From Chiloscyllium plagiosum (Eukaryota): a DNA stretch of 43,333 bases. Where the stretch lies: the NCBI RefSeq assembly GCF_004010195.1, contig NC_057718.1:68784746-68828078 (forward strand), given 5' to 3'. The position numbers and the translations under genes are program-made. The notes under the pieces are model-generated. The model did no database searches, was not told the origin of the DNA, and saw only the letters and a program-made list of their open reading frames with translations. Below are positions 8,513 to 29,960 of this stretch, piece by piece; positions within the stretch are counted from its first letter, which is position 1, and each line of letters starts with the position of its first letter.

Positions 8513-11500
8513 TGTAACCCAGAGATCAATGGATTGGACCCTCCTCTGCTATATGCTGTGTGCACTGCTGAGGTATGACAGTATTCCTGGGTAGCACTGC
8601 TCCATATATAGTGTGAGGAGGAAAAATATATATAAACAGGAGATTAGATCTCTTCAGTAAAAAAACGTGATGTAATCAGAAGTGTTTACCAAAACCCTTG
8701 AGGTTTTCAGGGAGAGGTGGGCACCATGGAGTATTTTATTTCCCCCTTGGAGAAAAAAAAGAAAAAACAGTAGTCTCAGAAGTTCTGTCCACTCTATGAG
8801 CCGGTTCTGAGCTAGCTGGATCAGTATCATGTACTATGTGCATGCAAATAAAGGGTGACTTAGTGATGGGACACTGGCCTTCATAAAGTTATTTCATTGG
8901 CAGTGAGAGAAGATTCGCTCGCAACAGTCTTCTTTGAGGTAAGCATTGCTGGCATCATGCTGCTATTTGGAAAGCTTGACTTCTTCAATCATAACATCAG
9001 AGACTGGTCCCAGTATGTGGGAAAAATGCGTTATCTTTTCTGAGCAAACGGCATTGGGGCAGATGAAAAGCAATGAGTAATTCTCCTGCCAGTTTGTGGA
9101 CCCGCAACTTTTTTAGTTATTAGGAGCCTAACTTTCCCTGAGGCAAAGATGCTAAAACCTTTCAAGAGTTGACAGATTCAACTGAGGTCTATTACAACCC
9201 TAAGTCTCCTCTAATTCTTAGACTCTATCAGGATTACTCGACAATTTGACAACTGTAGAGGCACGTGAGTTTGGTTCAACCGTAAGTGAGACTCTAAGGG
9301 ACTGCTATGTGGGGTTAATGATGTAATCATGCAAAAGTGCCTACTAGCTGAAGTCCAACTGGACTTCAAGCAGGCCTTCGTCATTAGAAAATGTGGCAAG
9401 TGGAACATATGGTTACAAGGTATGAAGTGGTCACCCTTGCCAAGGTCAACTGTCTTGAGGAACACCACCTGAGTGAAGGCAATTGAATAGCTTCATTCAA
9501 GACATATCCTGAACAGATATCCTAGGTCAGCACACAGCAAAATTCCAAAACAAAGCCCAGCCTCAGCCAAATGGGTAAAATTTTCTTAATGGTCTTTACC
9601 AGCAGACCATTGTTATTGCTGCCAGTATGCGGACTTGAGACAGCGAAAGAGTCCCACTAAGCTTGAATTGAGTATGAAATTCATAGACCAGTATCCTGGA
9701 GAGTGCACACCCTGGGAAATCCATCTACATCTGATTTGGAACAGTCAAATTGCATGTCAACATCCAAATCAGAACCAATCAAAATAAACGTCTGGTTAAA
9801 TGGTCACCCAGTTCTAATGGAGGTTGATACTGGTGCAGCTATATCAATGATTGTGGAACCAGTCTTTACCAAAATTCACTCTGGATTCCAACCTTTAAGT
9901 TTACATAAGACTTGGTGAGGTAAAAAACTCATATGTACTGAGGAACCTTTACAGATAAAGGTATGGTTTCTTATAAGAAGCAGCTGGGTCAGTTATCACT
10001 GATTGTAGTGAAAGGCTTGGGGCCAAGCTTGAGAGGGTGAATTGATTGAGAAAGATTAACTTGATTAGCTTAACATTTTTCATTTGAAAAATGGCTGCCT
10101 GAGTGAAGTCCTAATGAAATAACCAGAAGTGTTTCAGGACGGTCTAGGGACTATCAAAGAGCTAAGGCCACCTCACACAGAATCCCTATAGTGTGGAAAC
10201 AGGCCCTTCAGCCCAACGAGTCCACACCAACCCTCTGAAGAGTAACCCACCCAGACCCATCCCCCCATTACTCTACATTTACCCCAGACTAATACCTAAC
10301 TTACACATCCCTGAACACTATGGACAACTTAGATTAGATTAGATTACCTACAGTGTGGAAACAGGCCCTTTGGCCCAACAAGTCCACACCGATCCTCCGA
10401 AGAGAAACCAACCCCCCTATATTTACCCCTGACTAATCCACCTAACACTATGGGCAATTTTAGCATGGCCAATTCACCTAAGCTGCATATCTTTGGACTG
10501 TGGGAGGAAACCGGAGCACCCGGAGGAAACCCACGCAGACACGGGGAGAATGTGCAAACTCCACACAGACAATTGCCTGAGGTGGGAATTGAACCTGGGT
10601 CCCTGGCACTGTGAAGCAGCAGTGCTAACCACTGCTAAGCCCCCGTAGTGTTAGGTGAAGGGGTAAATGTAGGGGAATGGGTCTGGCTGGGTTGCGCTTC
10701 GGCGGGTCGGTGTGGACTTATTGGGCCGGAGGGCCTGTTTCCACACTGTAAGTAATGTAATATCTCAATCTAATTAAAAAAATCTAAGTAATCTAATATC
10801 TGACAATTTAGCATGGCTAAATCACCTAACCTGCACATCTTTGGATTGTGGGAGGAAACTGGAGCACCCGGAGGAAACCCACGCAGACACGGGGATAATG
10901 CGCAAACTCCACACAGACAAATCTTCTACAAATCTTCTCAAAACTCGCTAAGACAGTTGCCCAAGGCAGGAATTGTATCTGGCGCTGTGGCAATAGTACT
11001 AACCACTGAGCCATCGTGCCACCCCAAAAAGCAATTCTACCATTCTGCAAGGCCTGCCCAGTGCCATTTGCTTTACAGGCAAAAGTAGAGGCAGAAATCA
11101 GGAGACTGAAAGGATCATCAAACCAGTACAGTTCACAGAATGGGCAGCACCAGTTGTACCAAATGTGAAGCCTGACAGGTCGGTTTGCCTTTGTGGGGAT
11201 TTCAAACAAACAGTAAACTGTTTTTTGCAGCTGGATGATTACCTTGCATAGAGGACTTATACACAAAACTGGTGAGCCATGCATGCCTGCATTGGCAGTT
11301 AGATGAGGATTCCTAAAAGTATTACAATTAATGCTTATAAAGGTTTCTATCAATATACGAGACTGTCTATCGACGTATCATCAAGCTGTGCCATTTTCCA
11401 ATGGACAACATTTTACAAGGTCTACCTCAGGGTGCCAATTATCTGGCCTACTTGCTAATAACAGGGAAGATCAGTAAAGAGCATTTAGAGAACTTAGAGA

Positions 11501-13140
11501 AAGTGCTTAAATGTTTTTCTAATGCATGTGTACTCATTAGGAAGAAAAGAATGTGTTCCAGGTGCCCCAAGTGACCTACTTGGGCTACAAGGTTGACAAG
11601 ACTGGGTTACACCCATTGGAAGATAAAGTGACGGTGACCAAGGTGGCCCAACTCCCACAACAGTGTTGGATCTGAGGTTTTTTTGGGTTGGTGAATTATA
11701 ATGGAAAATTCATACACAACCTGACCGCCATCCTGGTACCATTATATCTGCTATTATAAAAGGATCAGCCTTGGAAATGGTCTCATAACCAAGGCATAAC
11801 CTTGAGGGAAGTGAAGAAGCAGTTATGATCATCTAAGGTGTTGGCACACAAGTGAGTTTTGGTGCTGAAATGCAAAGCCTCCCTGTATGGTACAGGGTAG
11901 TGTTGGCTCACCTGTGGCTCAAAGTGAGGCCCATGGTGTATGCTACCTGGACTTTGGTTGATGCCAAACAAGAATATGCCCAGATAGAGAAGGAAGATTT
12001 GGCAGTCACCTTGGTGTGAGAATATTCCATCAATACCTTTACGGACGTAAATTATGAATAATAATGGACAAGAAACCCCTGATAAGGCTACTTAAAGAGG
12101 TCAGAGCTATACTGTCCATAGCTTCAGGTCAAATTCAGTGTTGGGCTCTTACTCTGAGTGTGTACAATTATAAGTTGGAACACTGTCCGGGAGGCCAAGT
12201 GGCAAATGCCTTGAATTACCTCCCTCTGGCGGATCCACCACTGGTGGTGAAGAAGAGTTCATTAGAAGAGTTCATTCTTATTTTAAACTTTCTGGTCACT
12301 GCTGAGAATACCTGACCGTGGACACCAAAGGATGTGGTACTGACAAAACTTGAAACAGCTAGTAGTGATGGGAGAAAGAAAGTGGTCATCACAAGCAGAA
12401 TTGAAAACTTCTGGACTTGGAGAGCTCAGATCTCCATAAAGATTGGCATATTATTACGGGAGCAAGAGTGGTTGGCCCGAGCAAAGGTCCTTACCAGAAA
12501 CTGGCTGAACCCCACCAGGGTCATCCAGGGGTTTCAAATGAAGATGCTGGTGAGATGTTATGGTTGGTGGCCAGGACTAGATGTAGATATAGTTGGATTG
12601 GTGGGGCAATGCCCAGAATGCTAGGGGCCAAAATTACTGCCAGTAGCTCCCCCTCATTCATTAGAATGGCCAGGTGAACCCTGAACTCAGTTACACTTCA
12701 ACTCTTGGTTCCTTTCATGGGCTATATGGGTCATTGTGAATGCCTATTCAAAGTGATGGGATGTTTACAGAGTTCATTAGTCAAACATGGGCATGATGAT
12801 AGAAAAGTTGTGAGCATCTTTTGCAATACGTGGACTCCCAGTGGTGTTAGTCACAGACAAGAGGCCATCATGTATCAGCAGGAAATTCAATATTTGCTAG
12901 AGTTGAATGGCATTCAGTATATAAAGACAACTCCATACCATCCACCATCCAATAGTCTGGCGGAAGCAGCAGTCCGAACTTTGAAGGCAGTCTTAAAGAA
13001 ACAGCATACAGCTTCACACAATATCAAACATCTCAGTTCTTGTTTGATTACAGGACCACTCCTCATGCAACTACAGAATAGCTCCACTAGAGTTGCTAAT
13101 GGGAAGAAGATTCCGCATCAGGTTAAACCTGATCTTCCTG
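8513..13140 (+). mobile_element. Decayed Ty3/Gypsy LTR retrotransposon, Mag/K02A2.6-like (5' LTR 8513-8896, gag-PR-RT-RH-IN, no 3' LTR seen)
   Basis: TG..CA LTR with AATAAA, PBS-like TGGCAGTGAG at 8898, gag ATG at 8957. Protease MEVDTGAAIS at ~9817. RT WAAPVVP..GDFKQTVN at ~11140. Integrase HQGHPG..WWPGLD..CPEC and PYHPPSN.LAE.AVRTLK. Confidence 0.85.
10178..11025. mobile_element. Nested HE1 SINE cluster inserted between the Gypsy protease and RT
   Basis: Outer minus copy (10178-10332 + 10812-11025) is split by an inner minus+plus pair (10333-10801). Confidence 0.8.
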
Positions 13141-13390
13141 AGGCCTTTTGTTTATATGTAAACAGGTGAGACTTCAGGCCAAAGTGGTCATGTCCTAGAA
13201 GTGACCTGTATAATAAAAGGGGAGTGGTCAGCTCTCTAGCTGAGCAGTTCAGTCCAGAACTAATTAGGAGTTCAATAGTGAGCTGTGTGGAAAATCTCTC
13301 TGCTTATGCCCTTCTAACTTCAATCTATAAGCATTTGTTCCCTTTGTACTGTGTTTTAAAGGGGGTTTGCTTATTGGGACTGTTGTCAAC
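13140..13390 (+). mobile_element. LTR fragment related to the Gmr1-type LTRs
   Basis: CTGTATAATAAAAGGGGAGTGGTCAGCTCTC resembles the reverse complement of 31214-31250 and 17375-17410. Confidence 0.45.
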
Positions 13391-13394
13391 CTAG

Positions 13395-13772
13395 CTTTCT
13401 TACTCCGGGTAATTTTCACCGTTTTTTAAACATTGTAATTGTGTCCATATCCATCACTTCCTCTTGAAGTTCATTCCACACACCAACTGTTCTCTGCATA
13501 GAAAAAGTTGCCTCTCTTGCCCTTTTTAAACCTTCTCCTCTCACCTTAAAAGTATGTCCCCTAGTTTTGAACTCCCCCATCTGAGGGAAAAGACCTTTTC
13601 TATTCACCCTAACTATGCCCCTCTATAAGGTCACCGCTGACTCTCCTAAGCCCCAGTGAACAAAGTCCCAGCCTAACATGCCTAGTTATATAACTCAAAC
13701 CCTCCATTCCTGGCAATGTTATGGTAAATCTTTTCTGAACCCTCTCTAGTTTAATAATATCCTTCCTATAGC
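13395..13772 (-). mobile_element. CR1 LINE 3' fragment
   Basis: [16 protein letters not shown]...TRGHTFKVRG...WNEL. Confidence 0.8.
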
Positions 13773-14711
13773 TTCCTTTTGATATTTCTTGCATCCACCC
13801 AAATGGATTCTTACATCATTCAAGATCATTTCTTGCTAATGTACTCAATCCATCACCTACTAACAAAGTTACCCTTTCCTTACTGCATGTCTTTTTGCCA
13901 TCAATTTTGCCTTTTGTTCCCTCTTGACTCTATTTGCCACTTTTTCATGCATGCATATGCTGGGTCTTTATTTCAAAGGCAATAGAATATAAAAATAGAG
14001 AGGTTTTGTTAAAACTGTGCAAGGCATTAGTCAGACCACAGCTGTGAATGATAAACAGTTTTGGCAAAACAGATTTGATGGATTGAATGACCCACTTCTG
14101 CTCCCATGTCTTCCACTTTCTTCCTGTCCCACTCTGAATATCAAATTAGTTGCTCTGCAATGCGAGCATATCCTTTTGCTTTGCAAGCTTACATTTCCCA
14201 TTTCTCAAATCTTTCCTCTAATTAAAAATATGGGAATGCATGGAATTGTTGAGTGTAGTCTCTCTGCCTGCTCTGATGTCAGCCTAATCATCTTTTTTTC
14301 TAATCCCTGATGAGAAACAAGTGAGAGTGGATGATAATCGTGCTCTGCAATTTGGATCATAGGCCTCACGGACTTTAACTGCTGCCCCTCAACTGAGGTT
14401 GTATTTATTTGCCCTCAATTTTATGTGGGGTAGAGGACAGATTAGGAAAATCTGACAGCCAACAAGCAGGAACATCACCTAGCGGCCAATGGAAGTATTG
14501 GAGGGTTGGGATTAAAAACAAACTGTTTCAAGGTAGCTGAGGAGCCCGAAATCCAGGCCAACAGAAGTCCAAACTTACTTTTGTGTCTGGAACAGTACGC
14601 CTGCTCATCTTGACGTTAACAATTTTTAAAAAAAAATCTGTCTTCATTAATCTTTCTGAGTTCTTTACATGGCAACACTTTGCTCTCTCAAGCAAAAAAT
14701 TATTTTTTTTA

Positions 14712-14793
14712 GGTTAGATTCCCTAGAGTGGAAACAGGCCCTTTGGCCCAACAAGTCCACACCAACCCTCCGAAGAGTAACCCACCCAGTCCC
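14712..14793 (-). mobile_element. HE1 SINE/HER1-type LINE 3' tail fragment
   Basis: GTGGAAACAGGCCCTTTGGCCCAACAAGTCCACACC, as in the other HE1 tails. Confidence 0.7.
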
Positions 14794-14799
14794 TGAGGC

Positions 14800-15900
14800 A
14801 CTGTACTTCTCAACTAAACGTTCGAGTCGACCGAGGGCCAGGGATCTATACATCAGAATTCAAAACTTACCAGGGCCCGCTGGTGAGATCAAGTGCCCAG
14901 ACCCGGAGTCCGATTTCTATCCCTGGCCCTAATTGGTTTAGTGTGTCAATCGCAGGTTTGACTTTTTTTTTTGGCCGAAGAAGATACTGTATTTGCCAGA
15001 CTTTACCTCGATTTACACTTTATTAATAATTAGGCGGATCATTCGGAAAGTGACAAAAATCACAGCTTGGCGCTGATTCAGAAAAAAAAAATTGAGAACA
15101 GTTCCGTTTGAACTACCCTGCCCTGGATTCCTATTATGCATCTGTTCTCAGTTTTTGTAACCAGTTGACACAGCCGGAGAAATCCAATATTGTCGATTAC
15201 TTCCTACCAGGAAACATTCCTCAGTTTTGGAGAGCACATCGAAACGTATTTGCTTTACTGATGGTATAAAAACCGTCTGAGCCGCACCTACAGCGGAGTT
15301 TTTGGCAAGATTATTGTTTTTTTGTGTGACCTGTCGATGGCGCTCCAAGTTGCTTGAAAGGTGACCAAGATTGAGATAGGGTTGTCGTTTTTGAGTGGAG
15401 GATCAAAAATTGTGTATCTAATTGGTTCCCGTGTGCTGGACTGGCTCCTTACCTGAGAGTGGGTGGAAAAAGCGTCTTGAAGGAGGGTCTTATGTTGGAC
15501 GCCTACTTCCTGCTTCAGCAGCTTTCCGACGTGCTATTAGTTGTGAGCAGGGGAATGTGAATCGGCTTGGGAAAGCTACAACATTAATGAGAAGGAAAAA
15601 GAGCGGATGGTTGAGTGAAAGTTGTTTTTGGCTACCTCATGCTGGGATCTTTTTTAACCTGTGTTCAGAGTTTTCCTTTGAAATTTGACCATGGCTCTGA
15701 GTAAAGGATTCCGAGTGTTTCAGAAGCAGGAACCCGGCGGCAGCAGTGTGTTGCTGGAGTCCAGGAGTCGTCAGGATTGCCTCCTCTTCGAGGCTGGGGC
15801 TGTGGCCATTCTCTGTAAGTAACACCAGATTTTCGCGCATGGAATGAACTTTTAAAGAAAGCGGGGTACAGCTGCAACATTTAAACGATATTTTGGATAA
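14800..15900. promoter_or_regulatory. CpG-enriched, largely repeat-free promoter/5' UTR region of SYNJ2
   Basis: Visibly more CpG than the CpG-depleted flanks. Lies directly around the SYNJ2 ATG exon. Reverse CCAAT (ATTGG) at ~15421 and ETS-like ACTTCC at ~15505. Confidence 0.6.
15691..15814 (+). CDS. SYNJ2: Synaptojanin-2, first coding exon (N-terminus, ahead of the Sac1 domain)
   Basis: Kozak-like ACCATGG, then [41 protein letters not shown] + 1 nt, then a GTAAGT donor at 15815. It matches the recalled human SYNJ2 N-terminus (MALSKG...SVLLE...DCLLFEAG) better than SYNJ1 (MAFSKG...EECLMFESG), with the same phase-1 intron. Exon 2 was not found in the window. Confidence 0.9.
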
Positions 15901-16209
15901 TTACATGAATAAGAACTGTTTGGTGGGAACTGTGTAGTTTGGGATTACGGTCGGCATGGATTGTTTGGACCGAACGGTCTGTTTCCGAGCTGTATGACAC
16001 TGGTACTGGGATTGTGACTGCAGCTTTACCTGTACTGTATCTGCACTTTGGCTCCTTTCAGCAAATTCACCCATATCCACAACTGTGCTTGCAGCTTTAA
16101 CAATAACTGTATCCTCAGATTTAGCTGGACCCCCAATTGTGTTTATAGCTTTTTCAATTTTAACTACTGTGCCTGTATCTTTAGCCATATTTGCATTTTC
16201 ACAATTAGA

Positions 16210-16973
16210 AGCATGGAAAATAGGATTAGAAAGCCGCTTGTCCCTTTGAGACTGCTTTGCCATTCAATATGATAATGGCTGACCATCCAACTATGTTTTC
16301 CTCAAACACTTTGATTCCCAAAGTATGATATCTAACTAATTCTTGAAAACATTCAATATTTTGGTCTCGGTTCCACAATTCATCACACTCTGGATGAAGA
16401 AATTTCACCTTATCTCAGTTCTAAATTACCTACTCCATTTCATGACACAAGAATGAAGAACAGGCAATACTGTTTTGTCATTTGATACCATAATGACTGA
16501 TCTCATCTCCGTTCCATTTTCCTGCCCTTTGACTGTGATCCCTGGTCATTGAGAATTTACTTCCTGTGTTTACCCTGCTTAGACCTGTTGGAATTTTATA
16601 AGTTTCTGTGAAGTCTTGCCCACCACCCCTCCATATTCATGTAAACTCCAGTGAATATAGTCGTAACCAGACTAATCTCTCTTCATACATCAATCCTGCC
16701 ATCCCAGGAATCAGGCTGGTAAGCTTGACCTCACTGTCCATAGCCAGACCTTCTTCAAATAAGCAGACCAAAACTGCTTACAATACCAGTGCTGTTAACA
16801 GTTGCAGCGAGACATCCCAGCTCCTATAATCAAATCCTCTTGTTACGAAGGCTAACAAACCACATGCCACCTTCACCACCTGCTGCATCTGTATGCTACC
16901 TCTCAGGGACTGGTGTACAAAGACACCCAGGTCTCACTGCAACTCCCCTTTTCCCAATCTAATGCCATTCAGA
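16210..16973 (-). mobile_element. Old CR1 fragments; host of the Gmr1 insertion (continues at 31376-31475)
   Basis: CR1 RT/3' sequence runs up to the LTR edge and resumes after the other LTR (KYEVIHFRNKNRKADY). Confidence 0.6.
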
Positions 16974-17541
16974 TGTTACGGACCAGGCCAAATCCTGTCA
17001 AAATATTTTAAGAAGGTAGCAGAGAACCTAACTTTTCTAGTTGGTTTAAGCAGATGTAAGCTGAATATTCCAGGAGTGACCCAGTTGGTCAAACTACTCG
17101 GTTAAAAAAAAAACAGAATTTATTTACACACGAACAACAGAAAATCAAATTTAGAATAACATAACTTTTTGAAAACGCAACTGACATGAAAACACAACTT
17201 AACAAAGAATTGTTCCGATTTCTTGCAATATCTCATAACACACCCTTTGGCAAAAAAGTAAACTCAAACACACATTCTAACAGGAGAGGGACTGCAGAGA
17301 GTGAAAGGATCAGCAAGGAACTGTTTCTTTGAGTCCCCAACTAAAACTAACCCAAAAGTATAAAAAAACCCACACTGGGAGAACTGGCCGCTCCGCTTTC
17401 ATTGTTCAAGTGTTCTAAAAAAAACTTAAAAGCCTTTTCAAGTAGATGTTTTCAGACATATCAGAACCTCTGCCTGTAAGATCCCTGTTGGAAAAAATAT
17501 CAAGGACAACATAACCTTATTAAAGGAGCAGCATCATCACA
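16974..17541 (-). repeat. 3' LTR of the Gmr1-type element
   Basis: TGTTA...TCACA ends; diverged direct repeat of 30817-31375; adjacent PPT. Confidence 0.85.
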
Positions 17542-17902
17542 CCTCCCCCACCACCCAAAAAAAGCTTCATTATAAAACCTCAAATCTTACATTGTTAGTA
17601 GCCCACAACACATATACATCACATTAACTGTAAACATGCACTACTATATTCTGTTTCAGCCTGTTTACTCCTGCAACCTAATACCTCCATTTCTCTTCCA
17701 AATCTTGACAATGCATCGGCAATCACATTTTCCTGTCCTGCCACATGCACAATTTTCAAATTGAATGGTTGTAACAACAAGCTCCATCTTAACAGTCTGG
17801 AATTTTTATCCTTAAATTTCTCCACAAACTTCAATGGGCTATGATCAGTGTCTATGACTGTCTGTCTCAGATACACTACTGGTAATATATACAATTGAAA
17901 TA

Positions 17903-19635
17903 TAGTGACGCAAATAATTGGTGGGCTCTCCATTCGTCATCTACCTTAGGTATGTTATGGTGAAGGGTAAAAAGTGGTAAGGTGTGCACTAAAGCACAAT
18001 GTCCATACCAGTCATTCGGTATATATGGGTAGGCCTTGTTTTCATATAGCCAGTGGAGGCTAAATAGAGTTCCAAGGGTGCACTTCTGTGAATGAATGAC
18101 GAGTTGAGTCAGAACAAGGGCTGAATCTTGTAAATAGTGGGTGTTATCAAAAGTTCAGTTATCCAAGTGTATTTGTGGATGGAGAGTAGGTGTACAACCA
18201 GTGTCTTTTATAACATTGTTAAAAGTACTTGTTTCACTTGCCCCATGTCATGGGTACCGGAAGTTCTTTCAATACACCATTCTAATAGTGGAACACCGTT
18301 AACGTTGAGTCCTTTAAGTTTGTTAGTGCACTTCACACAGCAATGCGCTTCTTCTACCGAATGAGTTTTGTCATCGTAGGTAAGGGATTGAATAAATGGG
18401 TGAGTCTTATTCATACATTGTATATCTGATGGAAGAGTGAGCAGACAACACATTGGTCGGGGTGTTTAGCTTGAATAAAGAAACCATTGGCAACAGAAGG
18501 AGGATTGGAGTGCATAGTTTTTTGGTCTGTCTTCACTTTTCAACTTTGTTAACTACAGTAGCTACTGACTGCAGAAGCTGTACAAAGGTATTTCTGCCAG
18601 TAGTGGTAGGTCAGACAGGAGAAGGTTCTGTCGAGAAGGTACAAGTTGACAGTCTCAGAGCAATAGATGCCTTAGGGTTCTGTGATTTCGGTACTATGTG
18701 CTCAAAACTGCAATTCCTATGGTTCACTTTGGGAGAGAAGCAGACAAACATTTCAAAGTAACTATTTTCGGCTGATGAAGTGAATGAAGTTATCGGATCA
18801 TGCCATCTCATGACAACTGGCATGGATGTGTTGTGAGGGTGACAATAATGTTGAAAGTGATGTTTGGATGTGCAATGTGAATAGCTTAAATGAGGTTCAG
18901 CTGGGCATCTGCACTCATAACAGCTTCCAATAGTATTGGTACAAGTTTCATGGAGCTGACAAATTCTATCTTCAGGGGGAGCAGTGGGGAAGATAATACA
19001 TTCATCGTCATCGAAGCATCCCAAAGCACCAATGCCATTGCCAGTGTAGCCATGATTACATTGGCATTCTACACCTAAATTGTTGGGTTTTTTTCTACAA
19101 GTGGCATCGGGGTTATAAGTGGGTCATGTTAGTGTTCTCATTGTATCAGAATCACAATGGGGTAGCAAAATGGGTAGTGGATAGCAGAGTGAATGTTGTT
19201 AATTTCTGCTGTTTTGTGATCATCATGTCATGAGTGTCTTGTCTTGAGTGGTAGTTAACAACGTCAGTGGTGGTGGTGATGGTAGGTGATGATATGATCA
19301 TCTGTGTTGGGGGAAAGAGTCATTGGTGGGCATCTAATGGTCTCATTGCTTCAGCATGTGGCATCCTCCAAAATATCGTTTAGTTTGATAAAATTCATTC
19401 CTATGACATTGTTCATACCAATAAATGTACGTACATCTTAGTCACTTTTCCATTTGATTCATTAGCATTGACAAATTCCGTTCATACAGTCACATTGGAG
19501 GTTTGGCCTGTCGGAGATATTACCGATGGGCAGATTACATCTGGGCACATGTACTTGGATTGGGTTTTGATTGCACTCGTACTAATACTAGAATTGTGAA
19601 GGTGATACAAACTTGCAATTTCCTTTGTAGACCTC
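17903..19635 (-). pseudogene. env: ERV env region with embedded EGF-like modules
   Basis: Hydrophobic LQVCITFTILVLVRVQS overlapping the IN end, Thr-rich segment at ~19260-19300, EGF pair at 18872-19156, CxxC at 18441-18452, SU C-terminal motif at 17975-18052. Multiple frameshifts and stops. Confidence 0.7.
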
Positions 19636-20125
19636 TGTTGAATGTCCTTCTACTTTTACTGCAGTTTCAGTTGTCAGAAGAACTTGATTAGGACCTTTCC
19701 AGTGACGGCCCAATTTTTCTCGATTTAAAGTCTTGCAATAATACGTAGTCACCAGGGTTGATGTCTTTAAACGTTGAACCTTTTTCTTTTTCCTTCCCTG
19801 GTACCAGATAAGATGATAAGACTGCATTTCTTTGGTTAGCTTAATCAGATACCTGTGCATTTCATGCACATTAACAGGATATTGGGTCATTAATGGTGCA
19901 GACCAGGGAATCGTTAGGGGCTTTCCATATACTAGTTTAGCCGCCAAGAATCCCGTCTTTTACTGGTCATGGTTCTCATATTAAAAAGGGCAATCGGGAG
20001 TACTTGCAGCCAATTAAGATCTGTTTCCTCTACCAACTTGCTTAGCTGACCTTTTAAAGTACCATTGGCACTTTCTACAATTCCTGCTGCTTGGGGATGG
20101 TTGGCACAATGGAATCTCTGTAAAT
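19588..20125 (-). pseudogene. pol: ERV integrase C-terminal half
   Basis: HPQAAGIVE..NGTLK and WKGP.QVLLTT.TAVKV motifs typical of class I retroviral integrases. Confidence 0.85.
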
Positions 20126-20399
20126 GTCTGAATATGAATCATGCAGTAAAAGGGGAAACCTGTTGGGGTTCCTGGGGAGAGGGATCAGAAGATTGCTAGC
20201 TTCTTCATTCCAGTGATCAACAGGGGCCTGCCTTGGGAGAGGGCAGTTTTTGGATGAATGTCCTGGTTGGTTACAGTTGAAGCAAATGTCTGGCTGTAGG
20301 GGGTGGGAGAGACAGAGAGGAATAGTAAGAGGATGTGTAGGGAGTAAGGGGCATCATGGACTGTTGGGGAAGGTACATAGGAGGACCCAAGGTTCATAG

Positions 20400-22189
20400 G
20401 GATGTTGTCAATATACAGTACCAGCCCTATTCTCTTGCCATACTAGATAGACCTTCCTGTCCGCAAGGCCAGCTAGGTGATTCAGAGTTCTGGATTTAGA
20501 TCCAGCCCTTGCACTTTGGGCAAATTCAGTCTTGACCTTAACTGTTGAGGCCTTACTGTCGGGTCTTTTAGTTCCCAGAAGTTACATCCTTCTTGAACTG
20601 GTCAACATCGGCATCTTGTCAGTGTATATTATGGTTTTAATAGGTTTCTGTACCTGGTCAGGAAGGACAGTCAATCATAAGGCATTAAGTTGGGGCAATT
20701 GTCCTTGTGGGTACTGAGTGTCACCAGAGTAAGCAGCATAGCAGTCCTAAAGCAGACAAGGAAATCCTCAGCTCCTTTGCTTGAACAAGGTTTACATGTG
20801 AGGACCTTACTCATGTCGATTCCACATTGTACTGCTTCACGGAGGCAGCTATTAATCCAATCTGACTTATTAGGTTCGCCTGGATGCGTAATCATGAGTT
20901 GGGTATGATTATTACATTGTAAAATTTCTAAGAACTTAGTCCATTTTTCAGAGAAAAGAGCGCATTCTATAAAGAAGTCTTGGGAGGCCACATTGTAAAT
21001 GGTCCTAGTCCTATTAATATAACTACTGACTCCTTTGGGATTCTTTCCATAGTCTGGAGCCTTATTGATGATGTGAGAGAGTTCATGAGGCTTCCAAGGT
21101 TGATAAAGATTAACAAATGGATTTTGTCCCTGATCCTGGGCCAGTGGGTTAGGGAGCCTTCCAGTCGGGAAATTTCCTCTTGGCCATTTCATATTAGGGT
21201 GAGTGCAAGGACTAACATTAAAGGTACCTAAACTTTGATTGTAATTCATCAATGTGGCAGTCAAAGGTGCCTTCTCAGGGTTCCTTGCATGTCTTAATCT
21301 CAGTTGATTCCTTGTGCGGGTGGCAGTGGGATTATGGTAGCCTTGATCATCCGAATTCTTCTTATGCTGGACAGGAGAGGCAAATGAGGCAAAAAAAAGG
21401 GTATGGGCCTTGGCACGTTCATCCTCCGAGTAGGAAGGGGGTTCAGGTGCTTTAGTTTCATAGTCAGTGTTCACTTTGGTCATACTATGGGTGGGTTTCA
21501 AGAAATTCCCTGCTGGGGAACCGGAAAAGGTCGGTTAACAGGAGGGCGGGCATAATAAATGATATCCTCCTCCGAATTGGATTTAAATTCCTTGCTTGCA
21601 GGAGAATCATTGTCCTCTAATAATGGGTCTTTGGGATAGGTGGGGTGTAAGGAGCTGTCCTTGTCTGTCTGATCATGCGCAGCTGCAGCCTGATTCTTTC
21701 TAATTTACCACTTTCCTTTTTCTTTGGGGTCCCTGAAATTACAGATTAGGTTGTGGATCTCCGCCTCCTTTTATTTTATGCTATTTTTTTCTCTAGCTAT
21801 CTCCAATTTTGCTTCTAAATCATGTGCTTCATATTTGCATTTTACTTCTGTCCAATCTAATTCAAATCCTTCCTCAGTTAATTGACTGATACCCCTTTTA
21901 ATACATTGTTAACTCCATGATGATTGCATGGAATTTTCCCACTTTTCTTTAGCTACATTTTTCCATGCAGATATGGCTTTTTTCTTTTTACTCCCACAAC
22001 CTTTTTTAAAATTAACTCTTGTTCAGCCTCCATAAGTAAATTTAGATCATGTGTGCCTCTCAGAGGCCAGACCTTATTCTGTTGGGCAGCTGCATCAGAT
22101 ATTCCCCTTTGTTTCTCATAATTAGGATACGTACTCACTATCTCTGTTAAGGGACATTTACTCTCTATCTTATTTGAGGCCACATTCAT
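20400..22189 (-). pseudogene. gag: ERV gag (frameshifted, stops)
   Basis: ORF pieces 21953-22189 and 20671-21501 with MA-like, late-domain-like and CA-like motifs. Confidence 0.75.
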
Positions 22190-22455
22190 ATTTATCCTAT
22201 TTATTGTATACCTTCACAAAATTCTTACCATTGTCTCCTACCTTTGCAAGGTCTCTATTTTTAGTGCCTATTTAAACGATCTCATTCAGGGTGCCATCAG
22301 GGTATGTGAGAGTGAAATGGGGGATGTGGCACACAAAAATGCAGACAGCGAGCAACCAAGTTATAACCTTACCTTGTGGGCCTGTTGGTCTCGAGTCCGA
22401 CCTTTTAGATGAAGCTCTTCTTTCCCAGTTTCACTCTCAAGTATCCCTTGTTGGA

Positions 22456-22473
22456 ACCCTGCTCGCAGCGCCA
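22456..22473 (-). other. Retroviral primer-binding site complementary to tRNA-Ser
   Basis: TGGCGCTGCGAGCAGGGT, 3 nt from the LTR end; 17/18 match to the recalled 3' end of vertebrate tRNA-Ser(TGA) ACCCTGCTCGCTGCGCCA. Confidence 0.75.
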
Positions 22474-23934
22474 AATTGTTAAGTACCTATTTGAGATGGC
22501 TCAGGGAATCCCGAATGGTTCTCTCTTGGTTCGTCCTGGAGATCGTACTCTGTGATAGTCTGGAATATACAACTCTTACAGTTTAGTTTAACTTGTTACC
22601 TTTATTTACCAATAGCATGTTACACTATAGCATAGATACTTACAAGCAAGGCTTGAGCTAAGGTTTTAAAACCATTAGCAGGGGAGCAGCACCAGCTCTC
22701 TCAGGCTACTCCCCTTATTCTGCAAACAAGCTGTCTTTATACAGAAATTGGTACTGAGATTACGAGAAAAACACCGCATGTCCTTAATCAGATAAGCAAC
22801 AATAAAATGGCAAACGTTTGTAGAGGAGGAGAAACTCATTGACAGGTCTGTATATGCTTGCCTGATTAAGCTACATGCACATCACAGTGGGAAACCTTGA
22901 TCCAGCCAGGCCCCAAATGGCCAATTGCTTTGGCTAGATAGCCTTCCCTTTTTAGCTGTACATCATAATGAGGGACTAGTCTAAACTATGTGGGAAAGGT
23001 CATGAGGTAACCTTGCTCAGCTAACATGTCAAGTATCATTGTCCTACAAAATGGCTTTTTCTTTTAAAATCACCTTAGATTCCCAGAATGCAAGTTAAAT
23101 TCATAACCTTCCCAGATCTTGAGCTCCAGGAAAGAACACACTAACATTCAATCCATGACAAGCCAGTGTTCAGTCAAATCAGACCACAGAGTTAATCTTT
23201 CCAACAGCGTCTCTCCCTCGAATGTTATTTACAGAAGAATGTTTTCTCTTTCTCTCTCTCTCATTCACATGAACATCTTCCAATGTCCTTACTGTGTTAT
23301 TCAGCCTTTTGTGTTTTCCTAACCCGTAAGGGTAATGAGACTGTCACACTCTAGAACAGTCAAGATTATGGAATAAAGCTTCATAAATTCAAATCTGCTC
23401 AGTGTGGTATATGTGAAAACGTATCAGGATTGTTTGATTTCGTGTATTTTCCACTTAGCTTATTAAATTAAAAGTTATTTTCCTATTGAGTATGAGTTTT
23501 GTTAAGAGTCTTCGATTATAACCAAAATGTTTAGCTCTCTGACATTCCACAGTGAAATATGCATGCCTCCAGCCCCCGGCGTGAGAAGGAAGTACTGCCA
23601 CACATTCCACAAGTGAAAAAATGTTATTACTTTATTTACACCGATCCATTGACACTAAGAACAGGTGCCCCCAATTCTTCTGAACAAATGCCACCGCCCC
23701 CCCCCCCCCCCCCCCGCCACAATTCTCCTGAACAATTGCCCCCGCCCCCCCCCCCCCCCCCCCCCCGCCATGTCAAGTGCTTTTCCTGCATCTCCTGTAG
23801 CAAATGTGTCACATGTAAGGCTACAAGCTTTCTCATAGTCATCTTGAATGGTTTTTTGTAATTAGGTGTGGCTAATACAAGGGCAGTGGTTAACACAGCT
23901 TTCAGGCTGTCAAGTGCCTTCTGACACAGTCTGC

Positions 23935-24430
23935 TTTTCATCCTGATTCCCATTCAGTCGAAGGAAAATGCTTAGAGCGACAGTAAGCTTTACCTCCTTC
24001 ATCTTTATTCCAGGCCCTGGAGGGAGAGAGAATGATCGCCCACATGCACAGGGACATGAGTTCTCGGTCTTCTCTGGAATAGCAGTTTCTTAATTAATTA
24101 TATAGTCATTTTATGGGGAGGAGCATCCAGATAAGGCAACACACATATTGATTAAGTGACCATTACAGTCAGCAACTGTCAACATTAAAGATTGAGCAAC
24201 CTGCTTATGAACGTTCTTAACCTTAACTGGCTTCACATATGGAATACTTTTCACCTTGGTAAACTGACCTTACATACTGAATGCTTCCACATCTTGTTAA
24301 ATGGCTTTACATAATGAATGCTTTTCCGCCTTGTTAACCTATTGATCTGAGTCATGCTCAGCTGAACCTCTTGCTTCACAAAACTCATAACTCTTTCCCT
24401 ACCTACTTATACCCTATACACATTCTTTCA
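23935..24430 (-). mobile_element. Solo-LTR-like repeat (family B) inserted in the Gmr1 RT/RH junction
   Basis: Homologous to 35374-35937 and 42762-43157; splits the FQWT|ADCQKA coding; AATAAA on minus. Confidence 0.7.
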
Positions 24431-27048
24431 CTGTCCACTGGAAATTCTTTATTTTCTTTAGTAATTCAGTGAGAGGAGCAGCCACACAGCTAAAACTCGC
24501 TTCAAATTTTGAATAAAATCCACTCAATCCCAGGAATCATAGTACTGCTGTTTTTGTCGATGGTATGGGAAACTCCCCAATCACCTTTTGTTTTTGAATT
24601 CTGTGGGGCTATTTATCAGTATCCAATAACATTGATTAGGAAGGTGATTTGGAATTTGGCAAATTTTCTCCTTAGTCAGGTTTAACAGTTGAAGTCGATT
24701 TAACAGTTCTGATAAATGTTGTAAATGTTCCTTCCATGTGTGACTAAAAATTACCAGGTCATCAATATAAGCTACAAATTGGGTAATCTGGAAAGTACCT
24801 TATTGATTAGTCTTTGAAATGTGGCTGGCACATCCTTCATACCAAATATCATGACTTTAAATTGATGTAGTCCATTTGCATTACAAAAACCAAAATTGTC
24901 TGTCTTTGCTCTTTCGGACAAATTAACCTGCCAGTACCCTCTGAGCAAGTCCAACTAGAAATACAAGTTTCTTGTCCCACCTTTTCAATAAAGACTTTCA
25001 AATGTGGAGTCAGATATGAACCAGACTTTGATTATCACAAAGTCGATGCAATTACAAACTATCCAGATGATTGGGATAAAGGAATTCAGTTTGTTCCAAA
25101 TGCACCAAAAGAATTGGCCAAATTCAGACCATTTGAATTAGCTTTTGGGCGTGAAGAGAGGGGACTGCTAAAATTGATTAAGAAGAAATTGGTTAGTCAT
25201 AATTCAGAGTTCACACATTTGGACTGTATCAAATTTTAGGGAATGATTAAATAAACTGGGGGCATTGGCTAGACAGCATTTAAAAGTATCACAGCATGTA
25301 TTGAAACTGGAGGCAGACAAGAAATTAAAAAATCTCAATTTTGCTATCAGAGATAAAATTATTACTGCCAGTGATCGGTGACCCTTTAAAAGCAAAGTTT
25401 AGTGGACCATATCAAGGCGAAAGGTGATTGAGATTTCTTTCTGTCTGGACTCCTTACCAAATAGTTCACCTCACTCTGTCATGTGAACATGCTGAAAAGA
25501 TATTTTGACAGAGAAGGAAAGCAAAAGGAAACTGTGGTGAGTACCATCTGCTTTTGGCACCATTGGTGAGCTCCAGTCACTGTAACTCACATCAAATGTG
25601 TCACCTTGGAGCATGCATTCAATCTCCTTTTGATCCCGTACCAACTTTAAAGGCTTAAGACTAAGGATATTACTTAATCGGAACAGCATTTCCTATCTCT
25701 ACATCATGCATAATTAAGTTAGTATTTCCCAGCTTATTTCCACACGTCTCCCCATGTGATAGCAATAACTGTTTTGGGTCATTTTGATTTGCCTCTGGAA
25801 GGTAACTCAATAATTTATCCCAATTTTTGACAACTTCCTCATTGTCCAATTTTAATTCAAGGAATGTCCAATTCAGAATCCTCTGAACTTGGTTCTTCAC
25901 TCTGTGTTGTAACCAATAACAGTCTCCTTTTGATTCCCTTCCCTATACTGTTTGAGCATATTCACATGACACACTGAAATGTTTCTGTCTAGAATCCTTA
26001 TCAAATAGTTCACCTTATTCAAACTCCTTTTGACTTGATAAGGTCCATTAAACCTTGTTTTTAAAGATTCATCACTGGCAGTAACAGAAGTCCTCAACGT
26101 GGTTTTAATGTCTGATGCCACCTTTCTAGCACACCTTGCAATTTTGGATGATATGCAGTAGATTTGAATTGTTTTATTCCTAACTATCCATAACTTTCTT
26201 GAATAATTTTGAAGTTTGACCCTTGTTCTGATTGTATTTCTGTGGTAGTTCATCTCTAGTGAAAAGCTTGAGTAATTCCTCTACAATCCATTTAGCTGTG
26301 ATATTGTGTAATAGATTCACCTCTGGAATTCTGGTGGACACATCCATTATTATTAAGAAATCCTGATTCCCGTCAATGTTTTAGGTTCGGGGTCCTTTGC
26401 AATCAATTAAGACTCTTGGTATTATAGGTGCAGGTTTTATTGCTGCCTGCAGTTTTTAAATTACCTGACATGTCTGACAAAATTCACCTACATTTTCGTG
26501 CAGTCCAGGCCAGTGAAAATGTTTTTGTATTTTAGCTTGAGATTCTCTTACCCCTAAATGATATCCTACTGGTAATTCATGTGTAACCCACAACACACTG
26601 GCAATATGACTTGATGAATGTCTGCCCATTTCCTATTTGTCTGAAAGTCATAGGCTGTATTTCCTCATTAAAACATCATTTGTAAGATAGTAGCACTCAG
26701 GGATCCATCTAGATTCATTATTCCAAGTATACGTTTTGATACAATTGCTTCAAATTTTCATCTTTCCGCTGTAACTCCGTTAACTTCTCTGAGCTAAAGA
26801 TATCTACTTTGTCATCTATCTGCTTCTGGTTTGTCTCAACCGTCTGATCAAACAGGGTCTCTGCTAATTCCACTTCAACTTTCTTATCTGTAGTCTTTGA
26901 TCTCTCCTGTTTCAGCTGCTGACTTAGAGACATTGTTACCACACAGTCAAGAAACATCCCAGGACATGCTTCCTGTAATAATTCAGTGTCTGATTTTCCA
27001 CTGGCTTTTCAACCACAGTAGGCAGCACTCTAACCTGTGGACCAACTA

Positions 27049-29065
27049 CAGAGGAACCTCAATTATCCGAATATCTGATTATCCGAAGGGGATCTCAAGG
27101 TCCCGACAAAAACATACGTCAAAGAGCTGTGACAACTCTGATCGCGTCTTCTGTTTACGGGTACAGTGATTAAAACCAATCTCAGCTTGCTGAAATGCTG
27201 CCGAGAACAGTCCTGGACAGAACAGGCACCGTCTCTAAATGACTGATCTCCCACCTGCCCTCCCTGTCCTCCCTCACTTTCCCTGGAATTCTACACAAGG
27301 ATGTACCCTAAACCCCCCTCCCTCTTCCCCAGATAATCTCTCCAACATTGTCCTGTACAGGGCAGAGGTGGAACTTGTCAAAACGTTGTGTGTGTGTGTG
27401 TTCGCTCGCGCATGCTATTTGGAGGCAAGGACTGATTAGGGATAGTCAGCATGGCTTTGTGTGTGGGAAATTATGTCTCTCAAACTTGATTTGAGATTTT
27501 TCGAGCAGTAACAAAGAGGATTGATGAGGGCAGAGCGGTAGATGTGATCTATATGGACTTCAGTAAGGCGTTCGACAAGGTTCCCCATGGGAGACTGGTT
27601 AGCAAGGTTAGATCTCACTGAATACAGGGAGAACTAGCCATTTGGATACAGAACTGGCTCAAAGGTAGAAGACAGAAGGTGGTGTTGGAGGGTTGTTTTT
27701 CAGACTGGAGGCCTGTGACCAGTGGAGTGCCACAAGGATCGGTGCTGTGTCCTCTACTTTTTGTCATTTACATAAATGATTTGGATGCGAGCATAAGAGG
27801 TATGGTTAATAAGTTTGCAGATGACACCAAAATTGGAGGTGTAGTGGGCAGTGAAGAGGGTTACCTCTGATTACAACAGGATCTTGGCCAGATGTGCCAA
27901 TGGGCCGAGAAGTGGCAGATGGAGTTTAATTCAGATAAATGCGAGGTGCTGCGTTTTGGGAAAGCAAATCTTAGCAGGTCTTATAAACTTAATGGTAAGG
28001 TCCCAGGGAGTGTTGCTGAACAAAGAGACCTTGGAGTGCAGGTTCATAGCTCCTTGAAAGTGGAGTCGCAGGGAGGTAGGATAGAGAAGAAGGCATTTGG
28101 TATGCTTTCCTTTATTGGTCAGAGTATTGAGTACAGGAGTTGGGAGGTCATGTTGTGGCTGTACTTGACATTGGTTTAGGCCACTGTTGGAATATTGTGT
28201 GCAGTTCTGGTCTCCTTCCTATCAGAAAGATATTGTGAAACTTGAAAGGGTTCAGAAAAGATTTACAAGGATGTTGCCAGCATTGGAGGATGTGAGCTAT
28301 AGGGAGAGGCTGAATAGGCTGGGGCTGTTTTCCCTGGAGCGTTGGAGGCTGAGGGGTGACCTTTATAGTGGTCTACAAAATCAAGAGGGCCATGGATAGG
28401 GTAAATAGACAAAGTCTTTTCGCTGGGGTTGGGGAATTCAGAACGAGAGAGCATAGGTTTAGGGTGAGAGGGGAAAGATAAAAGGGACCTAAGGGGCAAC
28501 TTTTTCACGCAGAGGGTGGTACGTGTGTGGAATGAGCTGCCAGAGGAAGTGGTGGAGGTTGGTACAATTGCAACATTTAAGAGGCATTTGGATGGGTATA
28601 TGAATAGGAAGGGTTTGGAGGGATATGGGCCAGGTGCTGACAGGTGGAACTAGATTGGGTTGGGATATCTGGCTGGCATGGACGGGTTGGACCGAAGGGT
28701 CTGTTTAGTTGCTAGATATCTTGATGACTCTATGACTTACCCCACAAAAGCAGCAGCAGCAGCCTTATTGTCGGTGTACAGTCCTGCAGCCCCTGAGGGC
28801 TGGGTGGGGGGGGGAGTGGGGTGTGGTAGGTGTGTGGAAATGCGGGCGGTTGAGGCCAGGGGCGCAGACAGGATTCGGACTGGGTGGGGATGCGGGTTTA
28901 TAAGAATGTTGCCAGGGCTCAAAGGTCTGAGTTATAGGGAGAGGTTGGATACGCTAGGACTCTTTTCTTTACAGTGTAGGAGACTGAGGTGGGTGGGGGG
29001 GGGGGGGGGGCGGGGTCTCACACGCAGTGTGCTTTTGCCTAGTCTCCTGAACGGGGAGCAGACTT
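27049..29065. mobile_element. Tc1/mariner (pogo/Tigger-like) non-autonomous element remnant, one TIR only, interrupted by CR1
   Basis: TA|CAGAGGAACCTCAATTATCCGAA with a repeated ATTATCCGAA subterminal motif; no matching right TIR seen. Confidence 0.55.
27420..28735 (+). mobile_element. 5'-truncated CR1 LINE (RT domain to 3' tail)
   Basis: SGVPQGSVLCPLLFVIYINDL..KFADDTKIGG; very similar to 6420-7618; ends ATGACTCTATGACT. Confidence 0.9.
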
Positions 29066-29867
29066 TTTAGCCTCCACTGTGCTTTCTGTTACCCCTCCAA
29101 CAAAAGTCAGAGTTATCCTGTTTTCCTACATCTGGCTTTCCAGTGCTTTTTCTAAACCTACCAACATTGGTGATTTCACACAGCTGATTTTATTGCAGTA
29201 AAAGTACTGGAACTTTTTAAACTTCTGTTTTCCCTTTTAAGGGTTTCCTTTCTACCCTGTGGCAAGTTATGCTTATGATCCTCGAGATCTACCTTTTCCT
29301 TATGACAAGAGGATCTCTTTTCCCCAATTTCTGTCCCTCATGGATTGAAATTGATGTTGGAAGCCAAACTTTGATTTACGAATCATCTCATAATCAGCCA
29401 TTTGAGCTGCTGATCTTGCTGTTTTAACTCTCTGCTCTTTCACTTGAGTTCTCACTACTTCAGGAAGTGATTCTTTGAACTCCTCCAAAATAATCGTTTC
29501 TCGAAGAGGTTTGCTCTATTTTTAATGCTCTTCTCCACTATCAAAGTTACTTTGTTTGATCCTTTCAAACTCAGTGTAGGTTTGACCAGGGTTCCTCCTA
29601 AGATTCCTGAAAAGTTGTCTGTATGCTTCTGGTACAAGTTAATATGCACTTAATGGCTTTTTTTCACCTCCGCATAGGTGCAATTTACTCCTCTGATAGT
29701 GTTGCAAATACCTCAATAGCTCTACCTACAAGTTTTATTTGGATCAACAAAACTGAGTTGATCACTGGCTACTTCATTTGTTTAGCCACCTTTTCAAATG
29801 AGATGAAAAAGGATTCTACACCCTTCTTATCAAATTTAGGCAACGCTTGTATATATTTAAATGGATC

Positions 29868-29960
29868 TGAAAATGTGTTGCTGGAAAAGTGCAGCAACAC
29901 ATTTTCCAGCAACACATTTTCCAGCTCTGATCTCCAGCATCTGCAGTCCTCACTTTCTCC
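29868..29960. mobile_element. 93-bp Penelope family-1 mini-insertion with 16-bp TSD
   Basis: TATATTTAAATGGATC at 29852-29867 and 29961-29976; content is an inverted pLTR end plus the tail. Confidence 0.85.

Follow-up and report, generated by a model that had tools for sequence, protein, structure and literature searches.

The head of the surface subunit (SU) decides the host range of a retrovirus, and to our knowledge the SU heads described so far are viral folds of unclear origin. Acutely transforming retroviruses carry cellular inserts fused to env, as in v-sis, which is read from the env start, and in retargeting work of the 1990s murine leukemia virus (MLV) envelopes were reportedly engineered to display human epidermal growth factor (EGF) at the SU N-terminus. 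No such EGF chimeras of the envelope protein (Env) were found in the available part of the review PMC3265223. Amphibian endogenous retroviruses (ERVs) with a gamma-type Env carry a captured OGFr, as described in the accessible portion of a survey of anamniote gamma-type Env proteins (bioRxiv 10.1101/2021.11.23.469661). Here we describe an ERV in a stretch of 43,333 nucleotides of Chiloscyllium plagiosum DNA (contig NC_057718.1, positions 68,784,746 to 68,828,078; the whole stretch is called the window below), the env region of which holds two tandem EGF modules, EGF1 and EGF2, the second of the calcium-binding type (cbEGF). With a probability of roughly 0.8, this EGF segment comes from the env gene of a class I (MLV-like) ERV, extinct and multi-copy, whose gamma-type Env bore the EGF pair within SU. 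The gamma-type Env as such is known; what is new here is a gamma-type Env that bears host-type EGF modules.

Set against the gamma-type family, whose features we take from the available part of a 2023 review (PMC9967133), the ERV shares with the Env proteins of MLV and feline leukemia virus (FeLV) and with syncytin-2 a CxxC motif within SU's C-terminal half, a transmembrane subunit (TM) with heptad region, CX6CC motif and anchor, and an env that overlaps the end of pol; unlike them, it has a Cys-rich domain, a Thr-rich linker and the EGF/cbEGF pair in the N-terminal half of SU, where the receptor-binding domain and the proline-rich region would be, and no canonical furin site was seen in it by eye. 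Filovirus GP2 is a non-retroviral homologue, which the TM of the ERV matches. As in the reported EGF-display MLV envelopes, the N-terminal part of a gamma-type SU includes an in-frame module of the EGF fold; unlike those man-made proteins with their receptor-ligand EGF, the ERV is natural, carries a tandem of matrix/adhesion-type EGF_3 and cbEGF modules, and holds them inside SU behind another domain and a linker. The resemblance to v-sis lies in a cellular sequence for a secreted Cys-rich protein that is fused in frame to the env leader, but viruses of that type are replication-defective single isolates with a destroyed env, whereas the ERV keeps the C-terminal domain of SU and the TM and seeded at least 20 germ-line integrations. 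With the amphibian viruses the ERV has in common a cellular coding sequence within a multi-copy lineage of a lower vertebrate that has a gamma-type Env; the available part of the survey draws OGFr as a captured domain of the provirus and not, as here, within the Env ectodomain.

The original prediction, made from the letters of the window, knew of no natural retroviral Env with EGF repeats, and none with EGF modules was found in the full-text literature, with subscription journals and supplements outside the scope of that search. The term EGF had 0 occurrences in the available text of the anamniote survey, of the 2023 review, of a 2026 review of ERV structure (PMC13709493) and of a paper on elephant-shark ERVs (PMC4422223).

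Identity of the EGF modules

The minus-strand translation given in the original prediction was reproduced exactly (window 19189-18611), and the EGF stretch sits in a stop-to-stop frame of 170 aa (19123-18614, minus strand). Profile comparison bore out the predicted EGF likeness for one model, with EGF_3 above its cut-off (E=6.6e-7, 29.9 bits, cut-off 28.5), and not for two others, EGF (18.1 bits, cut-off 21.5) and EGF_CA (14.4 bits, cut-off 27). Module limits (19126-19016 and 19015-18872) were set by comparison with the other copies, which also changed the reading of individual cysteines. The Cys at 19156-19154, first taken as the opening EGF cysteine, is private to the window copy, the others having N-T-T-L-D-T. 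The TGA at 19126-19124 had been explained as a former CGA; this column is Cys in 17 of 22 copies, so that the TGA goes back to a Cys codon and not to CGA. The Tyr two codons further on was rightly seen as a former Cys (18 of 23 copies). EGF2 of the window copy contains one extra residue (S-C-Y-E versus S-Y-E elsewhere).

Other copies show the modules in better condition. In locus L002 all 12 EGF cysteines are present, six per module and in the usual order and spacing, and EGF_3 exceeded its cut-off in two of the four long-form frames (window, 29.9 bits; L002, 34.9 bits). The calcium-binding EGF pattern, given in PROSITE as [DEQN]-x-[DEQN]2-C-x(3,14)-C-x(3,7)-C-x-[DN]-x4-[FY]-x-C, is complete in 4 of 23 long-form loci (L003, L006, L012, L015), and the partial pattern C-x-[DN]-x4-[FY]-x-C-x-C is found in 8 of 23 long-form and 8 of 20 short-form loci; its absence elsewhere is in keeping with copy-specific lesions.

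A profile of six natural, stop-free viral EGF pairs was compared with 1.84 billion representative proteins and matched 35 of them at E<=1e-3, of which 4 reached E<=1e-10 and not one E<=1e-30. A Pfam scan of 10 hits showed 9 to be arrays of EGF_3, EGF_CA and cEGF, some with GAIN/7tm_2, NIDO or C-type lectin domains, and one to have CARDB only. The 20 hits whose names were checked are generic: adhesion-GPCR-like and LTBP-like proteins of amphioxus, fibrillin-, LTBP- and ADGRE2-like proteins of cnidarians, a hypothetical teleost protein, plant proteins and unnamed metagenome proteins. Among the 29 hits that covered at least 60 profile positions, 25 were aligned (left out were P0001, with CARDB; P0022, with a score of 1.1; and P0036 and P0037, of the P0003 cluster). 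These 25 cellular EGF/cbEGF pairs align column by column with the viral pair at 26-42% identity to L002, and the columns shared by viral and cellular pairs include the cysteines, C-H-P-N-A-T-C, G-Y-x-G-N-G, D-x-D-E-C and C-x-N-T-x-G-S-Y-x-C-x-C.

The viral profile had no match among the PDB sequences at E<=1e-3, and a threshold of E<=10 brought up only weak matches to EGF, fibrillin and uromodulin (E 0.1-0.3) and chance matches to RBX1. An AlphaFold model of the pair, built from an alignment seeded with cellular EGF pairs, reached a mean predicted local distance difference test (pLDDT) score of 77.4. Foldseek with this model gave four PDB matches at E<=1e-3 and a top list made up entirely of tandem EGF modules, headed by uromodulin (7q3n, E=3.1e-4, 33% identity over 85 columns) and followed by NELL1/2, EMR2 (2bo2, TM-score 0.57), CD97 and Notch1. 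No cubilin stood among the best sequence or fold matches, so the proposed cubilin likeness was replaced by one to uromodulin EGF I-II, NELL, EMR2/CD97 and Notch. With these the viral pair shares the cysteine pattern and the calcium-binding motif; it differs from cellular pairs in a C1-C2 loop of 12 residues and the lack of G-F/Y past C5 in module 2, in the missing G-S-F/Y turn of module 1, and in being set in a viral glycoprotein. We conclude that both modules belong to the EGF family.

Architecture of the envelope protein

The genome searched measures 3.56 Gb, and all locus counts are lower bounds. With 40 of 95 candidates scored, a DNA query (window 18600-19200) yielded 41 matches; a protein query with a natural SU frame, for which 111 of 320 candidates were scored, yielded 120 matches, and a query with the natural EGF pair yielded 102. 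By the last of these, at least 24 loci on many contigs carry EGF1. The original question of a single-locus or a family-wide segment was thereby answered in favor of the family: at least 24 loci hold both modules, all of them at the corresponding position, past the end of integrase and ahead of the CxxC part of SU. In the window, on the minus strand, the env parts are these:

19553..19651, minus strand: env start, a signal-peptide remnant overlapping the pol end, aligned to L002 residues 6-39
19309..19572, minus strand: Cys-rich N-terminal domain of SU, disrupted by stops and frameshifts (L002 residues 35-123, 60% identity, three stops in the aligned part)
19127..19308, minus strand: Thr-rich mucin-like linker, limits approximate owing to frameshifts
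19016..19126, minus strand: EGF module 1, EGF_3 type, from Pfam and comparison with copies; first Cys now TGA, second Cys now Tyr
18872..19015, minus strand: EGF module 2, calcium-binding type, D-D-D-E-C ... C-x-N-x4-Y-x-C-x-C with one inserted residue, from comparison with copies
18614..18871, minus strand: Cys-containing SU region past the EGF modules, in the same frame, closed by a stop that is read through in other copies
18223..18537, minus strand: C-terminal domain of SU with the CxxC place, damaged in the window copy and C-V-V-C in others (tblastn with the L015 frame, 57% identity)
17917..18121, minus strand: SU end; the alignment to copy C1 stops at 17917

The natural frames of other copies give the order signal peptide, Cys-rich N-domain, Thr-rich linker, EGF, cbEGF, post-EGF Cys stretch, SU CxxC and TM. 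A frame of 357 aa in L002 runs from the signal peptide through the N-domain, linker, EGF1 and EGF2 into the post-EGF stretch and contains 11 N-x-S/T sites; its 68-aa linker has 22 Thr, 5 Ser and 5 Pro (S+T+P = 0.47). The 368-aa frame of L009 takes in the N-domain and both EGF modules and continues past C-V-V-C, the 340-aa frame of L015 leads from EGF1 to the SU C-domain, and a frame in L005 leads from the SU end into TM, completed by a 235-aa TM frame of L002 with heptad region, CX6CC place (its first Cys a Tyr here), membrane anchor and tail. The motif C-V-V-C is present in L003, L004, L005, L009 and L015, with C-V-I-C in the short-form locus L026, and an intact C-x6-C-C in L003, L004, L009 and L013. 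Taken together, the family Env has about 800 residues. The EGF modules thus lie in one frame with the rest of Env, and of the two homes first proposed for them, Env and an accessory open reading frame (ORF) just upstream, the continuous frames of L002, L009 and L015 favor the former and not the latter. Signal peptide, EGF, CxxC and TM are tiled by natural frames, though no scored copy has them in one full-length open env. An open frame of 935 aa on contig C90064 was rejected, being a run of N (2,271 of 4,200 bases) and not an intact gene. Locus L015 has a deletion of its own (1466-1520) that joins the pol end and env start to residues just before EGF1, with signal peptide, N-domain and linker gone.

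The TM and the enzymes indicate the kind of virus. Searched against the PDB with phmmer, the TM matched filovirus GP2 at 3.7e-13, syncytin-2 at 4.7e-4 and an MLV-related Env at 0.086, with Pfam scores below the cut-offs for Ebola-like_HR1-HR2 (22.4, cut-off 27) and TLV_coat (13.7, cut-off 22.5). As a separate observation, the TM of L002 (2768-3472) is much nearer to filovirus GP2 of the Marburg/Ravn type than to the mammalian gamma-type TMs in the PDB. Copy C1 (L061/L062) holds reverse transcriptase (RT), RNase H, integrase, env, a purine tract and a long terminal repeat (LTR), and its RT has the XMRV/MLV enzyme as best match (5.7e-19), above those of foamy virus and Ty3. On the strength of the TM, RT and LTR matches the family is therefore assigned to the class I ERVs with a gamma-type Env. 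The layout LTR, primer-binding site (PBS), gag, pol, env, polypurine tract, LTR was put together from two copies, the window provirus and C1; a second LTR was not found in C1 within 14 kb.

A word-based protein search with the SU frame of L002, at near and longer lengths, and with the TM frame, at longer lengths, returned nothing at E<=1e-3, and no Env relative with the EGF stretch was found in any protein library searched. In ESM Atlas the N-domain had no usable hit, and the post-EGF part had a single hit, at 0.75 and without a family.

Intactness of the progenitor

Copies carry between 0 and 16 lesions in the 1,071-bp L002 frame, and these are private or attributable to CpG decay. In the window copy, 8 frameshifting indels and 2 TGA stops fall in the part from the signal peptide up to where the post-EGF stretch ends, and both candidate start Met codons of L002 are altered in this copy. 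Three codons of the L002 frame account for recurrent stops: codon 109 reads TGA in 11, CAA in 6 and CGA in 4 copies (17 of 21 changed), codon 278 reads TGA in 7, CAA in 5 and CGA in 9, and codon 30 reads TGA in 4, CAA in 4 and CGA in 7. Because TGA, CAA and CGA occur together at these CGA codons, we attribute the stops to CpG decay of the proviruses, which would by inference have been methylated. Of the copies that cover a given EGF cysteine column (20-23), 15-21 have Cys there, and this holds for all 12 columns.

A tree was built from 723 bp common to both forms of the family, downstream of the deletion described below, with 36 of 43 non-redundant loci (the 7 with fewer than 450 matched bases were left out) and no outgroup. 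Its loci fall into two groups, both star-like, and the median end branch is 0.068. Private or CpG lesions, retained cysteines and a star-like tree together lead us to conclude that the virus that seeded these copies had an open env with both EGF modules intact. Two copies on contig C8, L021 and L023, about 17 kb apart, have 9 lesions in common and, at the end of a long shared branch (0.13), short tips (0.013 and 0.024); the pair is a local duplication of an already decayed provirus.

A short form of the family

The 43 non-redundant loci comprise 23 long and 20 short ones. In short loci the match restarts at query base 610-613 (19 of 20) and the left-hand match ends at base 74-94 (12 of 20), the two ends abutting where both are visible. 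In terms of the L002 frame the short form has lost codons 66-246, an in-frame loss of 181 codons that joins C-I-N to E-T-C. With these codons went what was left of the N-domain, the linker, EGF1 and a third of EGF2 with its first two cysteines, 12 cysteines in all. A six-Cys hybrid made from the N-domain and EGF2 is kept (C-x-C-x4-C-x8-C-x-C-x10-C). The corresponding segment of the window is:

18952-19480: segment present in the long form only; the short-form loci are L024-L030 and L042-L060, with the same breakpoints in all examined

Long and short loci are reciprocally monophyletic (100/100), with distances of 0.142 and 0.136 within the groups and 0.214 between them. On this outgroup-free tree the short form is quite probably the derived one, because its breakpoint cuts a recognizable cbEGF. 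In the SU common to both forms, the ratio of nonsynonymous to synonymous change (dN/dS) is ~0.30 on the branch between the subfamilies versus 0.62-0.69 within them; Env was therefore constrained while the lineages diverged, a result that shows nothing for EGF1 itself.

Origin and role of the EGF pair

Several observations weigh against an EGF pair within the SU of a gamma-type Env. No scored copy has a full-length open env, the longest open frames being 368-496 aa, and a canonical R-x-K/R-R cleavage site was not seen by eye at the SU/TM border in the natural frames. The EGF_3 profile stayed sub-threshold in L015 (26.9 bits) and had no hit in L009, both of which show Cys-to-Tyr decay, and EGF_CA fell short of its cut-off of 27 not only in the window (14.4 bits) but also in L015 (16.9 bits) and the short-form locus L030 (14.8 bits), because the first loop (C1-C2) of module 2 has 12 residues. 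AlphaFold run on the 6 viral rows alone was uninformative (pLDDT 35.7), and the fold match accordingly leans on the cellular rows of the alignment. No donor gene was found among 1.84 billion proteins, the best library hits being generic and reaching at most 60 bits summed over several repeats, nor was any non-viral match found in the host genome, where all matches look like ERV by extent and position; an exon of 35-40% identity would escape this search. In the long form, pairwise dN/dS (Nei-Gojobori) amounts to 0.57 in the EGF pair and likewise 0.57 in the N-domain, with 0.72 in the linker and 0.64 in the post-EGF stretch. This value sets the pair apart neither from the other parts of SU (0.57-0.72) nor from the post-integration baseline, and there is thus no direct sign of selection on EGF1. 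Finally, the EGF1-less short form is about three times commoner than the long one, when EGF-pair matches that start only at residue 57-65 are counted against long loci.

We propose that the EGF pair was taken from the spliced mRNA of a cellular multi-EGF surface or matrix protein by recombination during reverse transcription, and that this capture would have preceded the burst of integrations. We infer an mRNA source because the pair has no introns and nothing corresponds to it in other retroviral Env proteins, and we keep the capture conditional because no donor was found. Placed in the receptor-binding half of SU, the pair could have formed a binding surface, or a stiff, Ca2+-stabilized stalk that held the N-domain out; both suggestions come from its position in SU, within the N-terminal half and preceded by a small domain and a glycosylated linker. 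The shorter Env may then be the product of a later 181-codon loss in frame, with the six-Cys hybrid module kept and further multiplication following. As to the role, for which the original prediction offered receptor binding or signalling as possibilities, we hold a stalk or spacer to be a possibility somewhat short of even odds and direct receptor contact a slightly weaker one, and leave what remains to a pair without a needed role. More tentative still, and on balance doubtful, is the fuller proposal that an EGF/cbEGF tandem, captured and borne on a mucin-like stalk, served an ancient infectious retrovirus of cartilaginous-fish-like hosts as its receptor-binding head, or as part of it. Were it true, the virus would be a natural counterpart of engineered ligand-display envelopes, SU heads could be rebuilt from host adhesion modules, and the 181-codon deletion would mark a switch of receptor or life style.

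The alternative that survives best, although we consider it unlikely, is that the EGF pair was a tolerated passenger, a piece of cellular mRNA in a part of SU that accepts insertions, with no needed role in entry. The loss of EGF1 and a third of EGF2 did not halt spread, as short and long places stand at about 3:1, yet endogenous copies can multiply without a working env, and the copy number of the short form therefore says little about entry. The dN/dS of the pair resembles that of the remaining SU, and the proline-rich region of gamma-type SU is known to accept large in-frame insertions, according to the available part of PMC9967133; against a passenger, all 12 cysteines and the calcium-binding motif were intact in the progenitor of at least 20 integrations, and the deletion took an even number of cysteines (12) and restored a six-Cys module, which resembles selection for a foldable product. 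A second alternative, which we rate as improbable, holds that the Cys-rich stretch is an old viral domain that is merely EGF-like, or is common by descent to unknown viral glycoproteins, with no capture from a host. It would explain why neither a cellular donor nor a host-genome match outside the ERV copies was found. The profile nevertheless matches cellular EGF arrays (9 of 10 scanned) that have the same common EGF motifs, the available text of the gamma-type Env review PMC9967133 and of the ERV structure review PMC13709493 makes no mention of EGF, and the libraries searched hold no Env relative with the stretch. The remaining alternative, that the EGF stretch is a separate accessory ORF upstream of env, a later insertion or a host exon unique to this locus, takes its appeal from the window frame, which is closed on both sides (19123-18614) and resembles a lone ORF, and is refuted by the continuity of the EGF frame in other copies with the signal peptide upstream and the CxxC domain downstream, by its presence in the same place at 24 loci on many contigs, and by the private nature of the stops that bound the window frame.

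The feature is thus real and the main points of the original prediction are supported. An EGF pair within the SU of a gamma-type Env gives a concrete case of a retrovirus that builds its outer envelope from cellular adhesion or matrix parts. It offers a testable handle on what such EGF modules bind, and engineered EGF-display envelopes gain a natural counterpart to be compared with; present in one genome, the long form and the short one also provide a dated example of gain and loss of an env domain. The weight of these points is limited, all copies being dead and the donor not found.

Age of the locus and related contigs

With an end branch of about 0.07 changes per site, and a neutral rate near an assumed 1-2e-9 per site per year, the copies point to an age of tens of millions of years. 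Contigs of other organisms were aligned to the window at >=90% likeness, and related sequence was present in those of three (B, C and D). All 30 bins of window 17600-22400, EGF region included, are covered by contigs of X9 (organism B) and X13 (organism C), and contigs of X19 (organism D; RNA by guess only) lie over 18874-19155 with 5-6 other letters each. The window provirus breaks off at 17917, and the Gypsy-like genome repeats extend up to about 17915. An X9 contig at 17780-17962 spans this ERV/Gypsy joint (17916|17917) with 12 other letters and 4 gaps in 179, and in the genome of the window the joint was found at this locus only, with 40 of 1,453 candidates scored. Since the contig bridges the joint, the cut-off locus would be older than the split between organism A, that of the window, and organism B, as far as one contig's worth of evidence goes.

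The window provirus and its surroundings

The window copy is a dead, degraded remnant in which pol is deleted and the TM and the 3' LTR are absent. Read on the minus strand, its elements follow the order LTR, PBS-like sequence, gag, CCHC knuckle, C-terminal end of integrase and env SU. The parts upstream of env are:

22477..23825, minus strand: 5' LTR of 1,349 bp, begins TG and ends CA, from alignment to the repeat of copy C1
22457..22473, minus strand: PBS-like 17-mer, starts TGG, 3 nt past the LTR, read off the alignment
20674..21534, minus strand: gag open frame of 287 aa, from the open frame and its position
20078..20353, minus strand: nucleocapsid zinc knuckle CCHC (Pfam zf-CCHC, E=4.4e-7, 30.1 bits)
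19591..20121, minus strand: C-terminal part of integrase (MLVIN_C, E=1e-6, 28.7 bits, cut-off 29.2; also matched by tblastn with the integrase frames of L013 and L030)

A repeat search of window 10000-30000 found no LTR pair, and the LTR was recognized only through comparison with C1, to positions 10084-11364 of which it is 77-81% identical; in C1 this stretch sits after the env stop and a purine-rich tract. The window LTR contains a GA repeat and two long G runs. The G runs (23700-23775, minus strand, near the 5' end of the LTR) are absent from the C1 LTR, and the frame across them reads poly-Gly. A second partial copy of the window LTR (its 3' ~740 bp, 78-81% identity) lies 17 kb away on the same strand, at 40286-41023, with no adjoining internal ERV sequence.

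The gag frame matched no Pfam family at E<=0.01 and nothing in 14 kb around C1; it is labeled gag because of its position between the LTR/PBS and the zinc knuckle. An internal deletion has its joint near 20125, the integrase match beginning at 20121, and has taken protease, RT, RNase H and the N-terminal part of integrase from the window copy.

The provirus lies within a Gypsy-like element, with RVT_1 and RT_RNaseH_2 at 24954-23639 and RT_RNaseH at 17936-17622, all on the minus strand. The Gypsy-like flanks occupy 23826-24954 upstream of the LTR and 17622-17916 directly past the cut-off env (minus strand). Across the provirus the RNase H profile positions nearly abut, running to 48 of 100 in RT_RNaseH_2 and from 67 of 105 in RT_RNaseH, which are two different Pfam models; such near-abutting halves are odd for a provirus without a 3' LTR. 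A Gypsy-type integrase was seen at 25900-26632 (minus strand; Integrase_H2C2 at 7.2e-11, SH3_Tf2-1 and Integrase_p58_C), and a SCAN-like frame at 29303-29515 (minus strand; 6e-6, slightly below the cut-off). Dispersed repeats of 73-84% identity pair 6415-7618 with 27417-28734 and 16976-17541 with 30819-31375, and the same set relates 23941-24343 to 35415-35803 and 42767-43117.

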